A stretch of DNA of 18,495 nt. Origin: an uncultured Aquificales bacterium. GTDB lineage: Bacteria; Thermosulfidibacterota; Thermosulfidibacteria; Thermosulfidibacterales; Thermosulfidibacteraceae. Position 1 is the first letter of the stretch. Every line of letters begins with the position of its first letter. The stretch covers positions 1 to 18,495 of the forward strand of contig CAYVOC010000020.1 of NCBI GenBank assembly GCA_964453345.1, given 5' to 3'. This document shows positions 10,300-17,881 of the stretch, piece after piece. Below the pieces are notes generated by a model. The model saw nothing but the letters and a program-made list of their open reading frames with translations. It made no database searches and was not told where the DNA came from. The translations under genes and the position numbers were made by a program.

Positions 10300-11400
10300 A
10301 TGAGACACCTTGGCTCCCAGGGCTTGAGCAGGAGGGATTTTCTAAAACTTTGTGTTATTGCCACGGCCACCATGGGGTTACCAGCCTCCATGGTGGAGAA
10401 GGTGGCAGCCGCCGTGCAGGACAAGAAGCGTCCCCCTGTCATTTGGCTTCACTTTCAAGAATGCACGGGCTGCACCGAAGCCCTGTTGAGATCCAGCAAT
10501 CCTGATCTTGCAACGCTGATCCTTGACCTCATATCCATTGATTACCACGAAACCCTGATGGCGGCAGCAGGCCATCAGGCGGAATCCGCCCTTGAGGAAG
10601 CCATCAAAAAGCATGCCGGAAAATTCATCTGCGTGGTTGAGGGATCCATCCCCACAAAGGACGGCGGCGTTTACTGCAAGATAGCGGGAAAAAAGGCGGT
10701 GGACATCATGCAGGAGGTTGGCTCAAAGGCCGCCGCCATCATAGCCATCGGTAACTGCGCTTCCTTCGGAGGGGTTCAGTCGGCGCCGCCAAACCCCACC
10801 GGGGCAAGCGGCGTTATGGATGTTCTAAAGGGCAAACCCATAATAAACGTTCCCGGATGCCCGCCCAACCCCTACAATTTTCTCGCAACAGTGCTCTATG
10901 TTCTCACCTTCAAGAAGCTTCCAAAGCTTGACAAATACAACCGGCCCCTTTTCGCCTACGGAAGGACCATACACGAACACTGCGAAAGAAGGCCCCACTT
11001 TGACGCGGGAAGATTCGCCGAGCAGTTCGGGGATGAGGGCCACAGAAAGGGCTGGTGCCTGTATAAGCTTGGATGCAAGGGGCCCGTAACCTATGCCAAC
11101 TGCTGCACCACAAGGTTCAACGACATGGATGTGTGGCCCATAGGCTGCGGTGCGCCCTGCGCGGGCTGCACCGAAAAGGGCGTCGCCTTCTTCATGCCCC
11201 TCAGGGAAAAGGTTGACATACACCAGATGACACCGCCCGAACAGTATGCCCCCATAAAGCACAAGGGCGGTAAGGTGACAGCCCCTGGTGTTGCGGCAGC
11301 CTCCGCGGCGGTGGGAGCCGCCTTAGGTGCAGCCGCCGTTGCGGCCTACAAACTTCCCGACAAAAGCGAGGTAGAGGATGAAGGGGGAAAGGGTAAATAA
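10300..11400 (+). CDS. hybO: [NiFe]-hydrogenase small subunit (Hyd-2/Hyb type)
   Basis: Tat motif SRRDFLK, VIWLHFQECTGC, DYHETLMAAAG, GCPPNP, IHEHCERR, CLYKLGCKGP, PCAGC, C-terminal hydrophobic anchor. Confidence 0.95.
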   Translation: MRHLGSQGLSRRDFLKLCVIATATMGLPASMVEKVAAAVQDKKRPPVIWLHFQECTGCTEALLRSSNPDLATLILDLISIDYHETLMAAAGHQAESALEEAIKKHAGKFICVVEGSIPTKDGGVYCKIAGKKAVDIMQEVGSKAAAIIAIGNCASFGGVQSAPPNPTGASGVMDVLKGKPIINVPGCPPNPYNFLATVLYVLTFKKLPKLDKYNRPLFAYGRTIHEHCERRPHFDAGRFAEQFGDEGHRKGWCLYKLGCKGPVTYANCCTTRFNDMDVWPIGCGAPCAGCTEKGVAFFMPLREKVDIHQMTPPEQYAPIKHKGGKVTAPGVAAASAAVGAALGAAAVAAYKLPDKSEVEDEGGKGK

Positions 11401-12250
11401 AGGCAGAAGGAACTTTCTCAAGAAGGCGGCCGTGGCCACAGGCGCCCTTGCCGTTCCCTCGGTATCATCAGCCTCCTTTGAAACACCGAAGCCCTCAGAA
11501 GACTGGTATGCAATGCTGTATGACGCCACCAAGTGCATAGGCTGCAAAACCTGCATGGTGGCCTGCAAAAGGGCAAACGGCCTCCCCTACGAAGAAGACG
11601 AGGATGGACTTCACGACGCCCCGGTGGATCTATCGTCCAAAACCGTGAACATCATAAAGCTATACAAGGAGGGGGATAAGTTCTCCTTCATAAAGAGGCA
11701 GTGCATGCACTGCGTGGACCCAACCTGTGTTTCCGTCTGCCCCGTTGGCGCCATGAGGAAGGATCCCAAAACGGGAATCGTTTACTGGGACGGGTCCCGC
11801 TGCATCGGCTGCCGATACTGCATGATGGCATGCCCCTTCAACATCCCAAAGTTCGAGTGGGAAAAGACCTTCCCCAAGGTGGTCAAGTGCTTCTTCTGCA
11901 AGGACACCAACCTTAAAGAGAAGGGGATACCGGCATGCTGCGAGGTCTGTCCCACAGGAGCGGTGATCTTCGGCAAGAGGGGCGAGCTTTTAGAGGAGGC
12001 GAAAAGAAGAATACGCGATAACCCTGGCAGATACATCCCCAAGGTTTACGGGGAAAAGGAGGTCGGAGGAACAGACGTCTTCTACCTTGCGGGCATAGAG
12101 TTTGCAAAGCTGGGGCTGCCGGAATTGATTGAAGAATCACCCGCCGCCTTCACAAGGCTCATACACCACGGCATATACAAGACCGTTGCGCCCCCGGCCT
12201 TCGCCTTCGCCCTTCTGTGGATGATCATAAAAGACCGGGACAGGGAGTAG
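11378..12250 (+). CDS. hybA: Hydrogenase-2 Fe-S electron-transfer subunit
   Basis: Tat motif RRNFLK; CIGCKTCMVAC, CMHCVDPTCVSVCP, CIGCRYCMMACPF, CFFC...PACCEVCP; VYGEKEVGGT; C-terminal hydrophobic segment. Confidence 0.93.
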   Translation: MKGERVNKGRRNFLKKAAVATGALAVPSVSSASFETPKPSEDWYAMLYDATKCIGCKTCMVACKRANGLPYEEDEDGLHDAPVDLSSKTVNIIKLYKEGDKFSFIKRQCMHCVDPTCVSVCPVGAMRKDPKTGIVYWDGSRCIGCRYCMMACPFNIPKFEWEKTFPKVVKCFFCKDTNLKEKGIPACCEVCPTGAVIFGKRGELLEEAKRRIRDNPGRYIPKVYGEKEVGGTDVFYLAGIEFAKLGLPELIEESPAAFTRLIHHGIYKTVAPPAFAFALLWMIIKDRDRE

Positions 12251-12254
12251 CGCC

Positions 12255-13406
12255 ATGCGTGAAAGGGAGGTTTGCTTCAGGCCGGTTGATAAACCTTTGA
12301 TAACAAAGCCCTTTATCTTTTTTCTTGTGATCTTTTTGATAGGAGCCTACTTCATCGCTCTGAGGTTTGTGAAGGGCATAGGGTATGTGAGCAACATGTC
12401 CGATGGGTATCCCTGGGGCATATGGATAGCCTATGATGTGGTGGTGGGAACGGCCCTCGGTTGCGGCGGATACGCCCTTGCACTTCTGATATACGTTATG
12501 GGCAAAAGGCAGTATTATCCCCTGATAAGAGGGGCAATACTTACAAGTGCCCTCGGATACACCCTGGCCGGCGCATCCGTCATCATCGACATAGGTAGAT
12601 ACTGGAATGTGTATCACTTCTTCATCCCGTCCCACTGGAATCTCAACTCTCCCCTTCTGGAGGTTGCCCTGTGTGTTATGACCTACATTCTTGTGCTCTG
12701 GATCGAGTTTTCGCCGGCCATAGGGGAGAAGCTCGGCTGGGACCAGGAAAGATTGGAGAAGATCACCAAGGTGGCGGTTCTTCTGGGAGTGGTTCTTCCC
12801 ACAATGCACCAATCCTCCTTAGGATCTGTTGAACTTGTCTCCATGACCAAACTGCACCCGGCCTGGCACACGGCCTTTCTGCCCCTTCTGTTTCTCATGT
12901 CCTGCATACTGATGGGGTATGCCGTTGTGTGTGCCGAATCACTTCTATCATCCCTGTTTTTCAACAGGCCCTTTGAAATGGAGATACTCGGGGGACTCGC
13001 CAAATACGCAAGGCTCTTTGGGTTCTGGTGGGTGGGACTGAGGATCCTCGTGCTTGTAATAGAGGGCAAGCTTATAAAGGCCCTATCTGCCGGATGGCTG
13101 ACCGGCATGCTCTTCTTGGAGATTCTGCTTTTTCTGCTTCCATCCTTCATGCTCCTCTCAAGGGAGGCCCGATACAGCCCGAGGAAACTCTTTGTCGCAT
13201 CCGTTCTTTACCTTCTCGGAGGGGCCCTTTACAGGTTCAACGCTTATCTTATAGCCTGGTCTCCGGGACCGGGATGGGCCTACTTCCCGTCCTTTGCTGA
13301 AACCATGATAACCTTAGGTATAGTATCCTTGGAGGTTCTGGCATACCTGATCTTTGTTAAGAAGTTTCCCGTGCTTCCGAAAGTTGAAAAAGCCAAGGGG
13401 GTTTAA
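12255..13406 (+). CDS. hybB: Hydrogenase-2 integral membrane subunit (NrfD/PsrC family)
   Basis: GYPWGIWIAYDVV.GTALGCGG, DIGRYWN, S.LLEVALC, LPTMHQSSLG, LHP.W, Y.PS..E; many hydrophobic segments. Confidence 0.94.
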   Translation: MREREVCFRPVDKPLITKPFIFFLVIFLIGAYFIALRFVKGIGYVSNMSDGYPWGIWIAYDVVVGTALGCGGYALALLIYVMGKRQYYPLIRGAILTSALGYTLAGASVIIDIGRYWNVYHFFIPSHWNLNSPLLEVALCVMTYILVLWIEFSPAIGEKLGWDQERLEKITKVAVLLGVVLPTMHQSSLGSVELVSMTKLHPAWHTAFLPLLFLMSCILMGYAVVCAESLLSSLFFNRPFEMEILGGLAKYARLFGFWWVGLRILVLVIEGKLIKALSAGWLTGMLFLEILLFLLPSFMLLSREARYSPRKLFVASVLYLLGGALYRFNAYLIAWSPGPGWAYFPSFAETMITLGIVSLEVLAYLIFVKKFPVLPKVEKAKGV

Positions 13407-13408
13407 CC

Positions 13409-15124
13409 ATGGGAAAGAGGATAGTCTGCGATCCCATAACCAGAATAGAGGGCCATCTCAGAATAGAGGTTGAGGTGGAAAAGGGGCACGTTAAGGATGC
13501 CTGGAGCTCCACCCAGATGTGGAGGGGGATAGAGGTTATCCTGAAGGGCAGGGATCCTGAGGACGCATGGTTCATCACCCAGAGGATCTGCGGTGTATGC
13601 ACCACCGTCCACGCCATTGCGTCCGTAAGGGCGGTGGAGAACGCCCTCGGCATAGAGGTCCCCCTGAACGCACAGCTCATAAGAAACCTTATCGTAATAT
13701 CCCACGCCCTTCACGACCACATAGTCCATTTCTACCACCTTTCGGCCCTTGACTGGGTGGATGTGGTCTCCGCCCTGAAGGCCGATCCCAAGAAGGCGGC
13801 CAAAATTGCCCAAAGCATAAGCGACTGGCCGGAAAACGGTGTGTCAAGGTTCAAGGCAACCCAGGAGAGGCTCAAAAAACTTGTTGAAAGCGGTCAGCTT
13901 GGACCCTTCACCAACGGATACTGGGGACACCCGGCCATGAAGCTGCCGCCCGAGGTGAACCTCATAGCCGTTGACCACTACCTTCAGGCCCTTGAATACC
14001 AGAGATACGCCACCCAGGCCTGCGGACTTCTCGGAGGCAAGAACCCCCACATACAGAATTTGACCATAGGGGGCGTGGCAAACCCCATCAACCTCGACAA
14101 CCAGGCCACCTTAAACATGGAAAAGCTCATGAAATATAAGTTCCTCATGGAGAAGGTGGCGGCCTTCGTGAAGGAGGTGTATCTGAAGGATGTGATAGCC
14201 ATTGCCTCCTTCTACCCCGAATGGCTCTCCTACGGAAAGGGTGTGGACAACTACCTTGCGGTTCCCGATCTTCCCCTTGACACCAAGGGCACAAACTTTG
14301 ACCTTCCGGGCGGCGTGATCTTTGACGGCAAAATAGATGAGGTTCACCCCATCAGCAGGTTCGGGGATCCCTTCTTCAAGGAGAATGTGAGGGAGTGCAT
14401 AGCCCACTCCTGGTATGAGGGAAGCTGGACGAGACACCCCTGGGACGAGGAGACCGTTCCCCACTACACCGATTACGATCCTAAAGGCAAATACTCCTGG
14501 AGCAAGGCGCCCAGGTTCTACCACAGAGAAAAGCACTACCCCATGCAGGTGGGACCCTTAGCTCAGGTGCTTGTGGGCTACGGAAGCGGCCATCCACTGA
14601 TCAAGAGGTATGTGGACGAATCCCTCAAGCTGCTGTCCAGCCTTGCCCATGCGCGTGTCAGCGTGGAGCATCTGAAATCAACTCCGGGAAGGCATCTGGC
14701 AAGGGCCATAAGGGCCGCCGTGATAGCGGAGCTCGCCCTGAAGCACTGGCAGCTGCTTGTTGACAACATAGCCAAGGGAGACGTTGAGATCGCCAACAAG
14801 GACTGGAGGTATCCGGCCGGGTCCATACGGGGAGTCGGTTTCCACGAGGCGCCAAGGGGCGCCCTTTCCCACTGGGTTGTTATAGAAAACGGTAAGATAA
14901 AGAACTACCAGTGCGTGGTCCCCTCAACCTGGAACTCATCCCCAAGGGATGAGATGGGAAGAAGGGGTCCATACGAAGAGTCCTTGGTGGGCAACCCCAT
15001 AGCAGACCCCGAAAGGCCCTTGGAGGTCTTGAGAACAGTCCACTCCTTTGACCCATGCATAGCCTGTGCAGTGCACGTGTTTGACCCTGAATCCAGAAGG
15101 GAGAGCGTGGTTAAGGTGCTTTGA
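13409..15124 (+). CDS. hybC: [NiFe]-hydrogenase large subunit (group 1c-like)
   Basis: DPITRIEGHL, L1 QRICGVCTTVH, EAPRGALSHW, L2 SFDPCIACAVH followed by a 15-residue cleavable tail. Confidence 0.96.
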   Translation: MGKRIVCDPITRIEGHLRIEVEVEKGHVKDAWSSTQMWRGIEVILKGRDPEDAWFITQRICGVCTTVHAIASVRAVENALGIEVPLNAQLIRNLIVISHALHDHIVHFYHLSALDWVDVVSALKADPKKAAKIAQSISDWPENGVSRFKATQERLKKLVESGQLGPFTNGYWGHPAMKLPPEVNLIAVDHYLQALEYQRYATQACGLLGGKNPHIQNLTIGGVANPINLDNQATLNMEKLMKYKFLMEKVAAFVKEVYLKDVIAIASFYPEWLSYGKGVDNYLAVPDLPLDTKGTNFDLPGGVIFDGKIDEVHPISRFGDPFFKENVRECIAHSWYEGSWTRHPWDEETVPHYTDYDPKGKYSWSKAPRFYHREKHYPMQVGPLAQVLVGYGSGHPLIKRYVDESLKLLSSLAHARVSVEHLKSTPGRHLARAIRAAVIAELALKHWQLLVDNIAKGDVEIANKDWRYPAGSIRGVGFHEAPRGALSHWVVIENGKIKNYQCVVPSTWNSSPRDEMGRRGPYEESLVGNPIADPERPLEVLRTVHSFDPCIACAVHVFDPESRRESVVKVL

Positions 15125-15576
15125 AGGCACTCATCGTAGGGCTGGGAAACATACTCTTAGGAGACGACGGCGCAGGAGTATGGGCGAGCAAAAGGCTGAA
15201 AGAGCTTGTCAAAGACAGTGCCGTTGAGATCATAGACGGGGGGACGGCTGTAACCAGCCTCCCCCTTCATATGTATCCCGCCATCATAGCGATTGATGCT
15301 GTAAAGATCTCCGGCAAAAGCCCCGGAGAGATCATCATCCTTACCAAAGAGGATCTGTTGAACACCCCGGATCCCCTACCCCTCTCCGGTCACTCAATAG
15401 ACTTCATACACATGCTGAAAATCCTTGATTTCTCAGGAGAGCTTCCAAACAGAGTGTGGCTTATCGGCATATGCGTAGAAGAAATTTCATCGGGAATGGA
15501 GTTGTCAGACAGGGTTAAATCCGCTGTTGAAAAAGCATGCAAGATTGTTCTTGAGATTTTAAAAAATGAGTTGTAA
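15121..15576 (+). CDS. hybD: Hydrogenase maturation endopeptidase
   Basis: LIVGLGNILLGDDGAG, IIDGGT, IDA, SGH motifs; TTG start overlapping the hybC TGA. Confidence 0.92.
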   Translation: MKALIVGLGNILLGDDGAGVWASKRLKELVKDSAVEIIDGGTAVTSLPLHMYPAIIAIDAVKISGKSPGEIIILTKEDLLNTPDPLPLSGHSIDFIHMLKILDFSGELPNRVWLIGICVEEISSGMELSDRVKSAVEKACKIVLEILKNEL

Positions 15577-15584
15577 TCTATACA

Positions 15585-15599
15585 GGGAAGGTGGGGCGA
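15585..15599 (+). repeat. Left arm of a perfect 15-bp inverted repeat flanking hsp20
   Basis: GGGAAGGTGGGGCGA is the exact reverse complement of 16194-16208. Confidence 0.8.
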
Positions 15600-15618
15600 A
15601 GAGAAAGGGGGTGGGGCT

Positions 15619-16185
15619 ATGCCCATGCGCAAGATCAGACAGGAAAGGGAAAAGTGGCAGGTGGGATGGAAGATGAGGTGGGCCTTCGGAGGACCCGAAA
15701 GGCCCCCTGAGGAGTATTTCGGTGGCAGGGACCCATCCGAGGACTACTTCGGATGGAGGGGACCTGCTCCAGACTACTTCGGATGGAGGGAAAGCTATCC
15801 TCCTCCCAGATACTTCGGATGGCAGGATCCCCTTCGCATACCCTTTGGAGCAAGGCCTCAGTTTCCACCCATCGACCTGTATGAGGAAAACGGCAAGCTG
15901 ATCCTGATTGCGGATATCCCCGGATTTGACAAAAGCGAGATCAAAATCGAGGCCAAGGAAAACGAGATTATAATATCGGGTGAGAGGAAAAAGAAATTGG
16001 CCGAAGCGGTCCCGGAGGAGAACGTCTACAGATTTGAAAGGTATTTTGACTCCTTCAAAAGGGTTATAGAACTTCCATGTTCAATAAATCCGGACACTGT
16101 GAAGGCAAAATACGAAAAGGGGACTGTGACCATCATAATGGAAAAATCCGAGGGCGAAAGGGGCAAGGAAGTTCCCATAGAATAA
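15619..16185 (+). CDS. Small heat-shock protein (Hsp20/alpha-crystallin) with repetitive aromatic N-terminal region
   Basis: [55 protein letters not shown]-terminal VPI (IxI-type) motif. Confidence 0.93.
15712..15822 (+). repeat. Intragenic tandem repeat, four units with 30/30/36-nt spacing
   Basis: GACTACTTCGGATGGAGGG exact at 15742-15760 and 15772-15790; degenerate copies at 15712-15730 and 15811-15822. In frame, encoding YFG(G/W). Confidence 0.9.
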
Positions 16186-16190
16186 AAATC

Positions 16191-16667
16191 CTATCGCCCC
16201 ACCTTCCCCTTCAAAACCTCAAATCCCTCGCTATTCTCAACCGTAAGCTCAAAGCCATACTTCGAGTTATACCTCAGCCTGCCCTTAACCTTAACAATCA
16301 TGCCCGCCATATCCTTCACGGGAAGCCCCTTATTTGCAAGTTTGCTGGCAAGCCCTTCAGGAACCCTAACAGCAACGTTTCCTACAACAAGAACTGTTCC
16401 TTGTCCTGCCTCTTCTACCCTATCAACCCTTCCCTTAACCCAGACCACCTTCCCCACAGCCCTGTTCAATCCATCAACATCGCCAGAATCCAGCACTTCC
16501 ACCACACCAGCAGACTTCTTTGAGGGGAGAAGAGGAAAATAGTTTCCCTTATTCAAACCAAATCTTTCCGCCCCCCACTTGACAAGAAGCAAACAGAAAA
16601 GAAAGGAAAGAACCACAAAAGAGAAGACAATTATTCTCAATCGCCTTATATCCCCGTCCTTTTTCAT
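16191..16667 (-). CDS. Hypothetical membrane-anchored protein with probable OB-fold
   Basis: Basic N-terminus and one hydrophobic helix, then GKVVWVKGRV...GMIVKVKGRL...FELTV beta-strand pattern; GGGAGG RBS and ATGA overlap with the upstream gene. Confidence 0.65.
   Translation of the reverse strand: MKKDGDIRRLRIIVFSFVVLSFLFCLLLVKWGAERFGLNKGNYFPLLPSKKSAGVVEVLDSGDVDGLNRAVGKVVWVKGRVDRVEEAGQGTVLVVGNVAVRVPEGLASKLANKGLPVKDMAGMIVKVKGRLRYNSKYGFELTVENSEGFEVLKGKVGR
16194..16208 (-). repeat. Right arm of the 15-bp inverted repeat flanking hsp20
   Basis: TCGCCCCACCTTCCC, 8 nt after the hsp20 stop and inside the last codons of the opposing gene. Confidence 0.8.
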
Positions 16668-17245
16668 CTGGTGCCTCCCATGTTGAAAAAGAAGTAAATA
16701 ACAGGCACAGAGGCGACACCACAGGTGATGCTCACCGTCCAGATTATACTGCCCCTAATCTCCCCGTCCCTGAGATCTCCCAGCCCTTTCAAGGCGTAAT
16801 ACTTCAGAATGGTGGTCAGCAGAGCAACAACCACAAAGAGCACCACAAAGGAGGAAAAATGTCCCTCCACCAGATTTACAAAATCCTTCCACGGGGACCT
16901 TCCCTCCACATGCATCCCCAGAACAGAACCGAAGCTTATCATGAAGAACTGTATATCAACCTCCTGGAAGATCGGAGAAATCATGGGCAACAGAGAAAAG
17001 CAGATTGATGCAAGGGCAAAAAGAAATCCCCCCACCACGGCAAAGGGTATATTCGCCTTCAGCCCCGGAACAAGCACAAGAAAAAGAACGCAGACGAGAA
17101 GTGAGGCAACAACAGGGTAAAACACAAGGTTTACAACGCCTAAGAACCTTCTGGGGACCGAAAGCCTCGAGATAAATCCAAAGTAGGCATAATGAAAAAG
17201 CACCACTATGGGAGGAGCCACAAAGTAAACCAAAAGATTTTTCAT
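16664..17245 (-). CDS. Hypothetical polytopic membrane protein (about 5-6 TM)
   Basis: 193-aa ORF with several long hydrophobic stretches, filling the space between the satP terminator and the coupled downstream gene; no clear SD. Confidence 0.7.
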   Translation of the reverse strand: MKNLLVYFVAPPIVVLFHYAYFGFISRLSVPRRFLGVVNLVFYPVVASLLVCVLFLVLVPGLKANIPFAVVGGFLFALASICFSLLPMISPIFQEVDIQFFMISFGSVLGMHVEGRSPWKDFVNLVEGHFSSFVVLFVVVALLTTILKYYALKGLGDLRDGEIRGSIIWTVSITCGVASVPVIYFFFNMGGTR

Positions 17246-17261
17246 AGTGTGGGTTTACTAC

Positions 17262-17296
17262 AATAAAAGGGCGGGGAGGGCAAGCCTCCCCACCCT
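17262..17296 (-). terminator. Rho-independent terminator of satP
   Basis: Minus strand AGGGTGGGGAGG-CTTGC-CCTCCCCGCCCT (12-bp stem, one G-U) followed by TTTATT, 6 nt after the satP stop. Confidence 0.85.
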
Positions 17297-17302
17297 CACA
17301 GA

Positions 17303-17881
17303 TTACTGCTTGGGTGCTCCAACCGGCAGGATTTCCCTTCCAAAAGCGGGGTTTATTATCTCAGCAGCCAGAAGATACCAGGCGGTAAAGGCAGTCCATA
17401 TGCCCTCCCAGCCTGCTATGCGTCCTATCATCTTGCTGCCGGTTATGGCGTGTATATCAAGCAGCAGGAAAAGAATAAGCAATGAGACAAAAACAACCAC
17501 CAGAGCCTTTGCCTTGGGGAAGGTTCCTATGGTCATTATGACCGTGAAGATGGTCCAGGCAATCAGGGTCCACATGAGAGCACCGTGGAAGTCCTTGAAG
17601 GCAGGCAAGACCTTGTTGTCCTTAAAGTATATCAATGTCGCCAGAGCAATCCAGAAGGCGCCGTAAGAACCGAATGCACAAAGACCAAAGGTGTTCCCTG
17701 TTCCAAACTCCAGAACGCCCGCTATAAGCTGGGCCAGTCCGCCGTAGAAGAGTCCTAAGGGCAAAGCAGCACCAACATCGGCAAGGATCCCTGCATTGTG
17801 CAGGTTAAGAATAAAAGTGGTAAGGGCAAAACCTCCAAGCCCCAGAGGAGCCGGATTTGCCAAAGGTCTAAACTCTGCCAT
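17303..17881 (-). CDS. satP: Acetate/succinate uptake transporter, GPR1/FUN34/YaaH (SatP) family
   Basis: Signature [51 protein letters not shown]. Confidence 0.94.

Follow-up and report, generated by a model that had tools for sequence, protein, structure and literature searches.

The window analysed here is a stretch of 18,495 nucleotides (nt) from an uncultured Aquificales bacterium (contig CAYVOC010000020.1), whose genome, called G000 below, is a 99.9% complete assembly of 1,507,602 bp. We noted that a small heat-shock protein (sHSP) gene in this window, hsp20, is bracketed by a perfect inverted repeat (Table 1). The two arms are 15 nt long, 100% complementary and separated by 594 nt, as found both by inspection of the sequence and by a repeat search. 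The 5′ arm is housed in the 42 nt that separate the stop codon of the upstream gene, hybD (15574–15576), from the hsp20 ATG (15619). The 3′ arm follows the hsp20 stop codon at a distance of 8 nt, at a place where the other strand carries the last five codons (GKVGR*) of a convergent open reading frame (ORF). A second, partial copy of the 5′ arm covers the Shine–Dalgarno (SD) region and the start codon (15607–15620); positions 15610–15620 of this copy can pair with 16193–16203 over 11 nt, at 91%. The exact repeat, the second copy and the doubling of the right arm as the end of the opposing gene had all been described in an original prediction made from the letters of the DNA alone, and all three proved to be real.

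Searching the whole genome with the 15-mer and allowing up to one mismatch returned exactly two sites, both of them flanking hsp20. Random pairs of 80-nt windows at the same spacing never contained a perfect complement of at least 15 nt (0 of 20,000), and four of the 20,000 contained one of at least 12 nt. Among 3,696 ORFs of at least 90 amino acids (aa), hsp20 alone is bracketed by a complement of 12 nt or longer; its value is 15 nt and the next best is 11 nt. Chance, which the original prediction had not excluded, is very unlikely to account for the repeat. At 55 other sHSP loci, comprising paralogues and genes from other phyla, the longest perfect complement was 10 nt in one case and 5–9 nt in the rest.

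The hsp20 protein consists of an alpha-crystallin domain (residues 90–187) preceded by an N-terminal extension of 89 aa with YFGG/W repeats. Genes for this long form were found only within the bacterium's own phylum, an uncultured group of thermophiles comprising 18 species, where they occur in 10 of the 18 species genomes and on a few metagenome contigs, one of which (L109) represents a further distinct lineage. The 12 loci that were examined correspond to 11 distinct lineages. At nine of the 12 (nine of the 11 distinct lineages), spread over three families, a 5′/3′ complementary pair is present at equivalent places. The 5′ strand lies 29–44 nt before the ATG and the 3′ strand 9–33 nt past the stop codon, and in all nine cases the arms are outside the ORF, on the same strand and flank the one gene. 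The form of the helix varies between loci (Table 1), and the arm sequence of family f2 is unrelated to the arms of families f1 and f3. At G008, G006 and a metagenome variant of the latter, the three loci from genus g4, no pairing above background was seen.

Table 1. Features of the hsp20 locus, with positions counted from the first nucleotide of the window, and the helices found at orthologous loci
Feature	Position	Strand	Remarks
5′ arm GGGAAGGTGGGGCGA	15585–15599	+	hsp20 5′ untranslated region (putative); 34 to 20 nt upstream of the ATG
3′ arm TCGCCCCACCTTCCC	16194–16208	+	9–23 nt past the hsp20 stop codon
hsp20 ORF, 188 aa	15619–16185	+	PF00011, E 7.7e-16; stop codon 16183–16185
SD-like GGGGGTG, overlapping a second 8-nt copy of the helix core GGTGGGGC	15607–15613; core copy 15610–15617	+	Alternative partner of the 3′ arm, in this genome only
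Third copy of the 3′-arm motif CCACCTTCCC, 10 nt	16445–16454	+	Inside the opposing gene; possible competitor for the 5′ arm in long read-through transcripts
Weak sigma-70-like candidate promoter TTGAGA-17 nt-TAATCT	15551–15579	+	Found by eye, below scan threshold; ends 5 nt before the 5′ arm
Hydrogenase maturation protease gene (HycI/HybD family)	15121–15576	+	PF01750, E 2.4e-20; last gene of the upstream [NiFe]-hydrogenase operon
Convergent ORF, 158 aa, OB-fold-like (lead only)	16191–16667	−	3′ arm complements its last five codons
Helix, G000			15 bp
Helix, G002			15 bp plus a terminal G-U
Helix, G003			10 bp
Helix, four g7-type loci (G015, G014, G017, L109)			8-bp core GGTGGGGC/GCCCCACC, 1x2 internal loop, second 7-bp helix TAGAGGC/GCCTCTA
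Helix, G013 (family f2)			CAGGGCGGTCTC with its complement, 12 bp including one U-G
Helix, G009 (family f2)			11 bp, same kind as G013

The helices were compared with background by a restricted-helix energy measure, which allows one small interruption and draws its 3,000 random window pairs from G000 only. The number of random pairs matching the energy of the helix was one for G000, G002 and each of the four g7-type loci, five for G013, and 32 for both G003 and G009. For the three g4 loci it was 2,839–2,921, which is background-like. RNAduplex with shuffles, applied to the 80-nt flanks, gave z-scores of +0.7 to −3.8 and was dropped in favour of the perfect-run and restricted-helix statistics; its scores are weak because very large interior loops are allowed.

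Covariation between the arms was assessed in an alignment (A4) whose ends were trimmed so that both arms align. It replaced two others (A2 and A3) in which the arms of some sequences were out of register. With the register and a structure of 22 named pairs chosen by the analyst from the same sequences, 78.5% of cells pair, compared with 43.5–50.8% when the partner is slid by 1–3 columns. Changes on both sides were seen in 11 of the 22 pairs, a number reached by none of 500 shuffles. One outer position, for example, is G-C in G000 and A-U in G002, another has A-U where G003 has G-C, and f2 has both partners changed in four of the eight core pairs. Arms from f1 and f3 cross-pair with those of f2 over only 5–8 nt, whereas cognate arms pair over 8–15 nt. 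Given A4 alone, RNAalifold predicts the same terminal helix (columns 10–19 with 655–664).

Natural compensatory change across three families strongly supports the view that the pairing has been selected for. Because complementarity is kept while the letters change, what is maintained would be a base-paired structure rather than a recognition sequence. These comparative data already make a chance origin very unlikely. They also lend strong support to the long-range 5′–3′ RNA pairing that was among the possibilities raised by the original prediction, which had proposed conservation and covariation in relatives as a check: the arms pair in nine of the 11 distinct lineages, with both sides changing together. 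Because relatives keep the flanks complementary even where the letters have changed, the two ends of the hsp20 messenger RNA (mRNA) most likely pair with each other, which would be a rare architecture for a bacterial mRNA.

Comparison of the loci also indicates that conservation of the 3′ arm concerns its nucleotides rather than the C-terminus they encode in the opposing gene. There, the ORF closes with KVGR in G000 and the g7-type loci and with …GGAR in G002, where the same nucleotides are read in another frame; in G003 and in f2 (g5) it stops short of the 3′ arm. Six loci have the OB-fold-like gene with no long hsp20 next to it (G001, G005, G010, G016, G011 and a second copy in G013), and the core motif is absent from all of them. 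Upstream, the neighbour is the hyb operon in G000, a divergent aspartate kinase gene in G002, a SurA-like gene in G003, a divergent major facilitator superfamily transporter gene in g7 (three genomes checked) and divergent serS in f2. The downstream neighbour is conserved across two families and is different in g5, where the helix still tracks the hsp20 start and stop. On these grounds, the unit that travels together is arm, SD, ORF and arm.

The RNA of the nine orthologues, cut 8 nt outside the arms, was folded at 37 to 90°C, a test at several temperatures that the original prediction had called for. The helix was kept in the minimum-energy structure of all nine over the whole range, with a pair probability of 0.96–1.00, although folding at high temperature relies on extrapolated energy parameters. 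In the window, the fold of 15580–16213 has an energy of −229 kcal/mol (z −4.79 against 20 shuffles), and the helix closes the whole molecule. The energies of the arm duplexes range from −24 to −35 kcal/mol at 37°C and from −8.5 to −13.8 kcal/mol at 85°C. The growth optimum was estimated at ∼76°C with a proteome-composition formula. The helix is therefore predicted to be closed at both growth and heat-shock temperatures, given its probability of 0.96 or more at 90°C.

Five loci (this window, G002, G003, G013 and G015) were scanned for promoters and terminators. Sigma-70-like promoters were detected by the tool at two of the five; the one in G002 ends 6 nt, and the one in G003 9 nt, short of the first paired base. 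Weaker matches at the same distance were found by eye in G000, G013 and G009, none of which was reported by the tool. No terminator-like site was found 3′ of hsp20 on the + strand at any of the five loci; the 3′ arm is followed by three T residues at most, and the local G+C-rich hairpin plus U tract of an intrinsic terminator is not seen. The genome encodes a homologue of ribonuclease (RNase) E/G at C13:3514–4323 and RNase III at C12:12590–12970; a search of this 99.9% complete genome with PF17770 did not find the C-terminal domain of RNase J. We also looked for the 3′ end of the 16S ribosomal RNA (rRNA), as a yardstick for the SD-likeness of the arms, and did not find it in the assembly.

We propose, with a probability of roughly 45%, that the arms are the 5′ untranslated region (UTR) and 3′ UTR halves of a single helix in the sense mRNA, which ties down and protects both ends of the message. 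A helix of 10–17 mostly G-C pairs would close the whole ∼570-nt ORF into a loop, with its 5′ strand beginning at, or within a few nt of, the transcription start. The inner end of the helix is 14–32 nt from the ATG and 7–28 nt from the stop codon. Because both strands sit outside the ORF, translating ribosomes need not melt the helix. At one end of the message, the helix would leave no free single-stranded 5′ terminus for the 5′-end-dependent RNase E/G homologue; at the other, it would block 3′-to-5′ exonucleases and, because there is no intrinsic terminator 3′ of the gene, would define the 3′ end of the mRNA. We infer that the joint effect would be a slower decay and a stabilised heat-shock message when growth takes place near 75°C. 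The helix would also bring the stop codon to the same end as the SD and start codon, with 24–60 single-stranded nt between them in total. A closed-loop mRNA, in which terminating ribosomes are handed back to their own start and both ends are protected, is quite improbable; if it did exist, it would be an analogue, without proteins, of the circularisation of eukaryotic mRNAs, and one that a thermophile phylum has conserved.

Several observations weigh against protection of both ends by a terminal helix. Among the sequencing runs searched, none of RNA contained the locus. For this window, G013 and G015, the promoter scan gave nothing where a site was expected. Lying 42 nt behind hybD, hsp20 may be co-transcribed with it, in which case the 5′ arm would be internal rather than terminal in this genome. 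Two g4 species retain hsp20 without the helix, which is thus dispensable. The register and structure used for the covariation counts were taken from the very sequences counted, whose nine rows amount to only about five independent lineages, and the genomes other than G000 may differ in composition from the random-window background, which came from G000 only. In a longer context (15400–16400) the helix is lost at 37°C (P 0.001) and is back at 75°C (P 0.91); the third copy of the motif out-competes the true 3′ arm in the longer-transcript fold at 37°C, but not at 75°C. Finally, the wobble counts leave the strand unsettled, with five G-U cells against many A-C cells at the helix edges, and the internal loop of the g7 helix would be tighter on the antisense strand.

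The helix could instead be a double-stranded cleavage site for RNase III, by which the hsp20 message would be matured from longer transcripts or its decay triggered at times when the protein is not required. This is unlikely. In its favour, the 5′–3′ pairing of icaR is described as yielding an RNase III substrate (PMC3868564). The enzyme is encoded in the genome, hsp20 is 42 nt behind the hyb operon here with no tool-detected promoter, and the two stems of the g7 helix, split by a small internal loop, have the shape of phage and rRNA RNase III sites. The substrates of this enzyme usually span roughly two helical turns, however, and helices of 10–17 pairs would probably fall below that size. 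Selection for a very stable helix immediately beyond the ribosome footprint is no less compatible with protection. At most of our loci the upstream gene is divergent, which leaves no precursor in need of cleavage. For the same reason, the excision of hsp20 from a hyb transcript suggested in the original prediction is not a general function, the hyb operon being upstream here only, although co-transcription is possible in this genome. A translational or thermal switch, in which the 3′ arm alternates between the 5′ arm and the SD and start region, or the helix melts on heat shock, is distinctly unlikely. sHSP genes are classic targets of RNA thermometers (PMC4152365, PMC4477652) and, in Bacillus subtilis, anti-SD-like sequences hundreds of nt downstream can pair with the ribosome-binding site (PMC12697547). 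Alone among the orthologues, this genome repeats the 8-nt core in its SD region, whose pairing with the 3′ arm has a predicted energy of −23.5 kcal/mol at 37°C and −9.0 kcal/mol at 85°C. At 37°C the main helix reaches −34.9 kcal/mol, however, and it always wins the fold, with a probability of at least 0.96 at 90°C against an estimated optimum of ∼76°C. In the eight other orthologues the SD pairing is worth only −4.8 to +0.3 kcal/mol at 85°C, the g5 arms are not SD-like, and no Rfam family, thermometers included, matched the hsp20 locus at E up to 1. The SD/decoy switch of the original prediction therefore fails as a conserved function and survives as a possible local add-on in this genome.

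A role of the repeat as DNA is highly doubtful, whether as the ends of an invertible or once-mobile segment or as two opposed binding sites of a gene-looping regulator. A whole gene bracketed by inverted repeats is a classic hallmark of such elements, and concerted change could also arise by gene conversion or by co-evolution with a binding protein. However, no recombinase or transposase domain was found among the neighbours in the window or in the relatives' loci, the segment has one orientation relative to the downstream gene at all loci, and the motif has two copies only in the genome. Contigs from four DNA runs of four studies contained no strand-changing joint, although contigs may miss rare forms, and no variant inside either arm. 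The invertible or inserted segment envisaged in the original prediction is not supported by these findings. Nor does the locus resemble a transposon-like cassette, with no direct repeat visible outside the arms and a downstream neighbour that is conserved across two families. Matched changes at peripheral positions are lineage-specific, and the internal G-T of G013 becomes a wobble pair in RNA, both of which speak against a function in DNA. That pair bears equally on the strand, since on the antisense strand it would become an A-C mismatch. The helix might form not in the hsp20 message but in antisense or read-through RNA of the convergent operon: the opposite strand of a perfect inverted repeat carries that repeat as well, the fold of the antisense strand over 15121–16300 contains the helix with a probability of 0.99 at 37°C, and there is the tighter g7 loop already mentioned. 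At 75°C, however, the helix is less probable on the antisense than on the sense strand in both of two longer contexts (0.40 against 0.91, and 0.88 against 0.99). The arm is also missing at the OB-fold-gene loci without hsp20, and in g5, where the downstream gene differs, the helix keeps to the hsp20 start and stop. The position of the arms, the U-G pair and the predicted probabilities thus seem to favour the sense strand, and an antisense origin is highly improbable. Chance complementarity between G-rich and C-rich flanks is exceedingly improbable. The flanks are indeed purine-rich on one side and pyrimidine-rich on the other, and a loose pair count, allowing G-U and one interruption, does not discriminate (at least 15 pairs in 276 of 4,000 random window pairs). 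Against this stand the uniqueness of the motif, the random-window and ORF statistics, the covariation, the failure of f2 arms to cross-pair, the helix energies and the 10-nt limit at other sHSP loci.

The thermometers of sHSP mRNAs (ROSE, fourU and cyanobacterial hsp17) are local 5′-UTR hairpins that hide the SD or AUG and melt in the physiological range. The hsp20 helix resembles them as a post-transcriptional RNA structure on a small heat-shock gene, but it spans ∼600 nt, leaves the SD unhidden and is predicted to be closed at 90°C. Bacterial mRNAs can also be stabilised by 5′-terminal stem-loops and 3′ stem barriers, as exemplified by the ompA leader and repetitive extragenic palindromic (REP) elements. 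The effect proposed for hsp20 would be the same, namely the absence of a free 5′ end and a block to 3′ exonucleases, but two separate local hairpins are used there, whereas one helix would serve both ends here. In the RNase III processing stems that flank rRNAs, complementary sequences on either side of a gene pair over a long distance, as the hsp20 arms are predicted to do. The rRNA stems are longer and belong to stable RNAs, however, and cleavage of the hsp20 helix is hypothetical.

A 14-bp interaction that links the 5′ UTR to the 3′ UTR protects the hbs mRNA of B. subtilis (Braun, Durand and Condon 2017, PMC5737220); it holds endonuclease cleavage in check and influences decay from either end. 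The proposed role of the hsp20 helix is akin to this, and so is its layout: in one short monocistronic mRNA, the 5′ UTR is joined, or in hsp20 would be joined, to the 3′ UTR by a fully complementary stretch (14 nt in hbs, 15 nt in hsp20), and the helix encloses the ORF without including the SD. The sequences are not homologous to the hsp20 arms, however. The hbs 5′ segment lies within a long structured leader, whereas the hsp20 5′ arm is predicted at the transcript start, and the hbs 3′ segment is just upstream of a terminator, whereas no terminator-like site follows hsp20. RNase Y is the nuclease involved for hbs; in this genome we found a homologue of RNase E/G, in a search that did not extend to RNase Y. 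A review (PMC7821165) reports that conservation of the hbs 3′ UTR does not extend to close relatives; the hsp20 pairing, by contrast, is kept across three families. The icaR mRNA of Staphylococcus aureus (Ruiz de los Mozos et al. 2013, PMC3868564) likewise has an intramolecular 5′–3′ UTR pairing, between a C-rich 3′ motif and a G-rich 5′ motif, and its duplex may serve as an RNase III substrate. It differs in that the pairing covers the SD and blocks initiation, whereas the conserved hsp20 helix is upstream of the SD.

The 2021 review names only three cases of bacterial 3′ UTRs that pair with their own 5′ UTR, RNAIII, icaR and hbs, and notes that 3′ UTRs of this sort tend to lack conservation, even between close relatives (PMC7821165). 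In a literature search of limited coverage, we found no report of 5′–3′ pairing on a small heat-shock mRNA. The kind of pairing is already known; the hsp20 case has no sequence in common with those three, occurs on a heat-shock gene in an uncultured thermophile phylum, leaves the SD uncovered and shows conservation by covariation. Its significance lies in the way compensatory change has kept the pairing intact in three families of an uncultured vent phylum, on a heat-shock gene and at a growth temperature estimated to be near 76°C. If the proposal is true, a message can be protected at both ends by a single short helix, and this would offer a simple and transferable design for stabilising mRNAs in thermophiles.

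The remaining observations concern the hsp20 ORF, its neighbours and its upstream regions. Residues M1, P2 and M3 of hsp20 are invariant across 10 orthologues. The N-terminal extension (15619–15885) is basic and aromatic and contains four tandem units of ∼10 aa (…YFGG/W…), which correspond to DNA repeats at 15703–15827 with a period of 30–36; the extension matched no Pfam family. Besides the terminal helix, RNAalifold pairs the SD region (15606–15613) with 15839–15846 (A4 columns 43–50 with 279–286) in all nine orthologues. The latter segment, ∼230 nt into the ORF, comprises the codons of a conserved I/V-P-F-G motif, and some changes are seen on both sides; the pairing could be an ORF-internal anti-SD or an artefact of the coding alignment.

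The [NiFe]-hydrogenase operon (10300–15576, + strand) encodes a small subunit, a 4Fe-4S protein, an NrfD-type membrane subunit, a large subunit and a HycI-type protease, and is directly upstream of hsp20 in this genome only. On the other side, a string of convergent genes (16191–17881, − strand) is conserved in families f1 and f3 and consists of the OB-fold-like 158-aa protein, a family-less protein of 193 aa and a transporter of the GPR1/FUN34/YaaH (SatP) type. For the 158-aa protein, a sequence search of the PDB gave nothing below E 0.19, there was no match in Pfam or NCBIfam, and Atlas offered an OB-fold lead only (0.90).

Some of the orthologous loci have further motifs upstream of hsp20. 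Three g7-type loci (L007, L010 and L109) have two direct copies of a CTTGTTAAA-like motif ∼55–95 nt upstream of the gene, to the 5′ side of the 5′ arm; the second copy is imperfect in L109, and L008 is without the motif. The two f2 loci (L011 and L012) share a palindrome, GTGAAA-N9-TTTCAC, ∼60–110 nt upstream of hsp20, with one half imperfect in L012. It is followed by CCCTTG(A/C)A, and the two elements may represent an operator and the −35 element of an alternative sigma factor.

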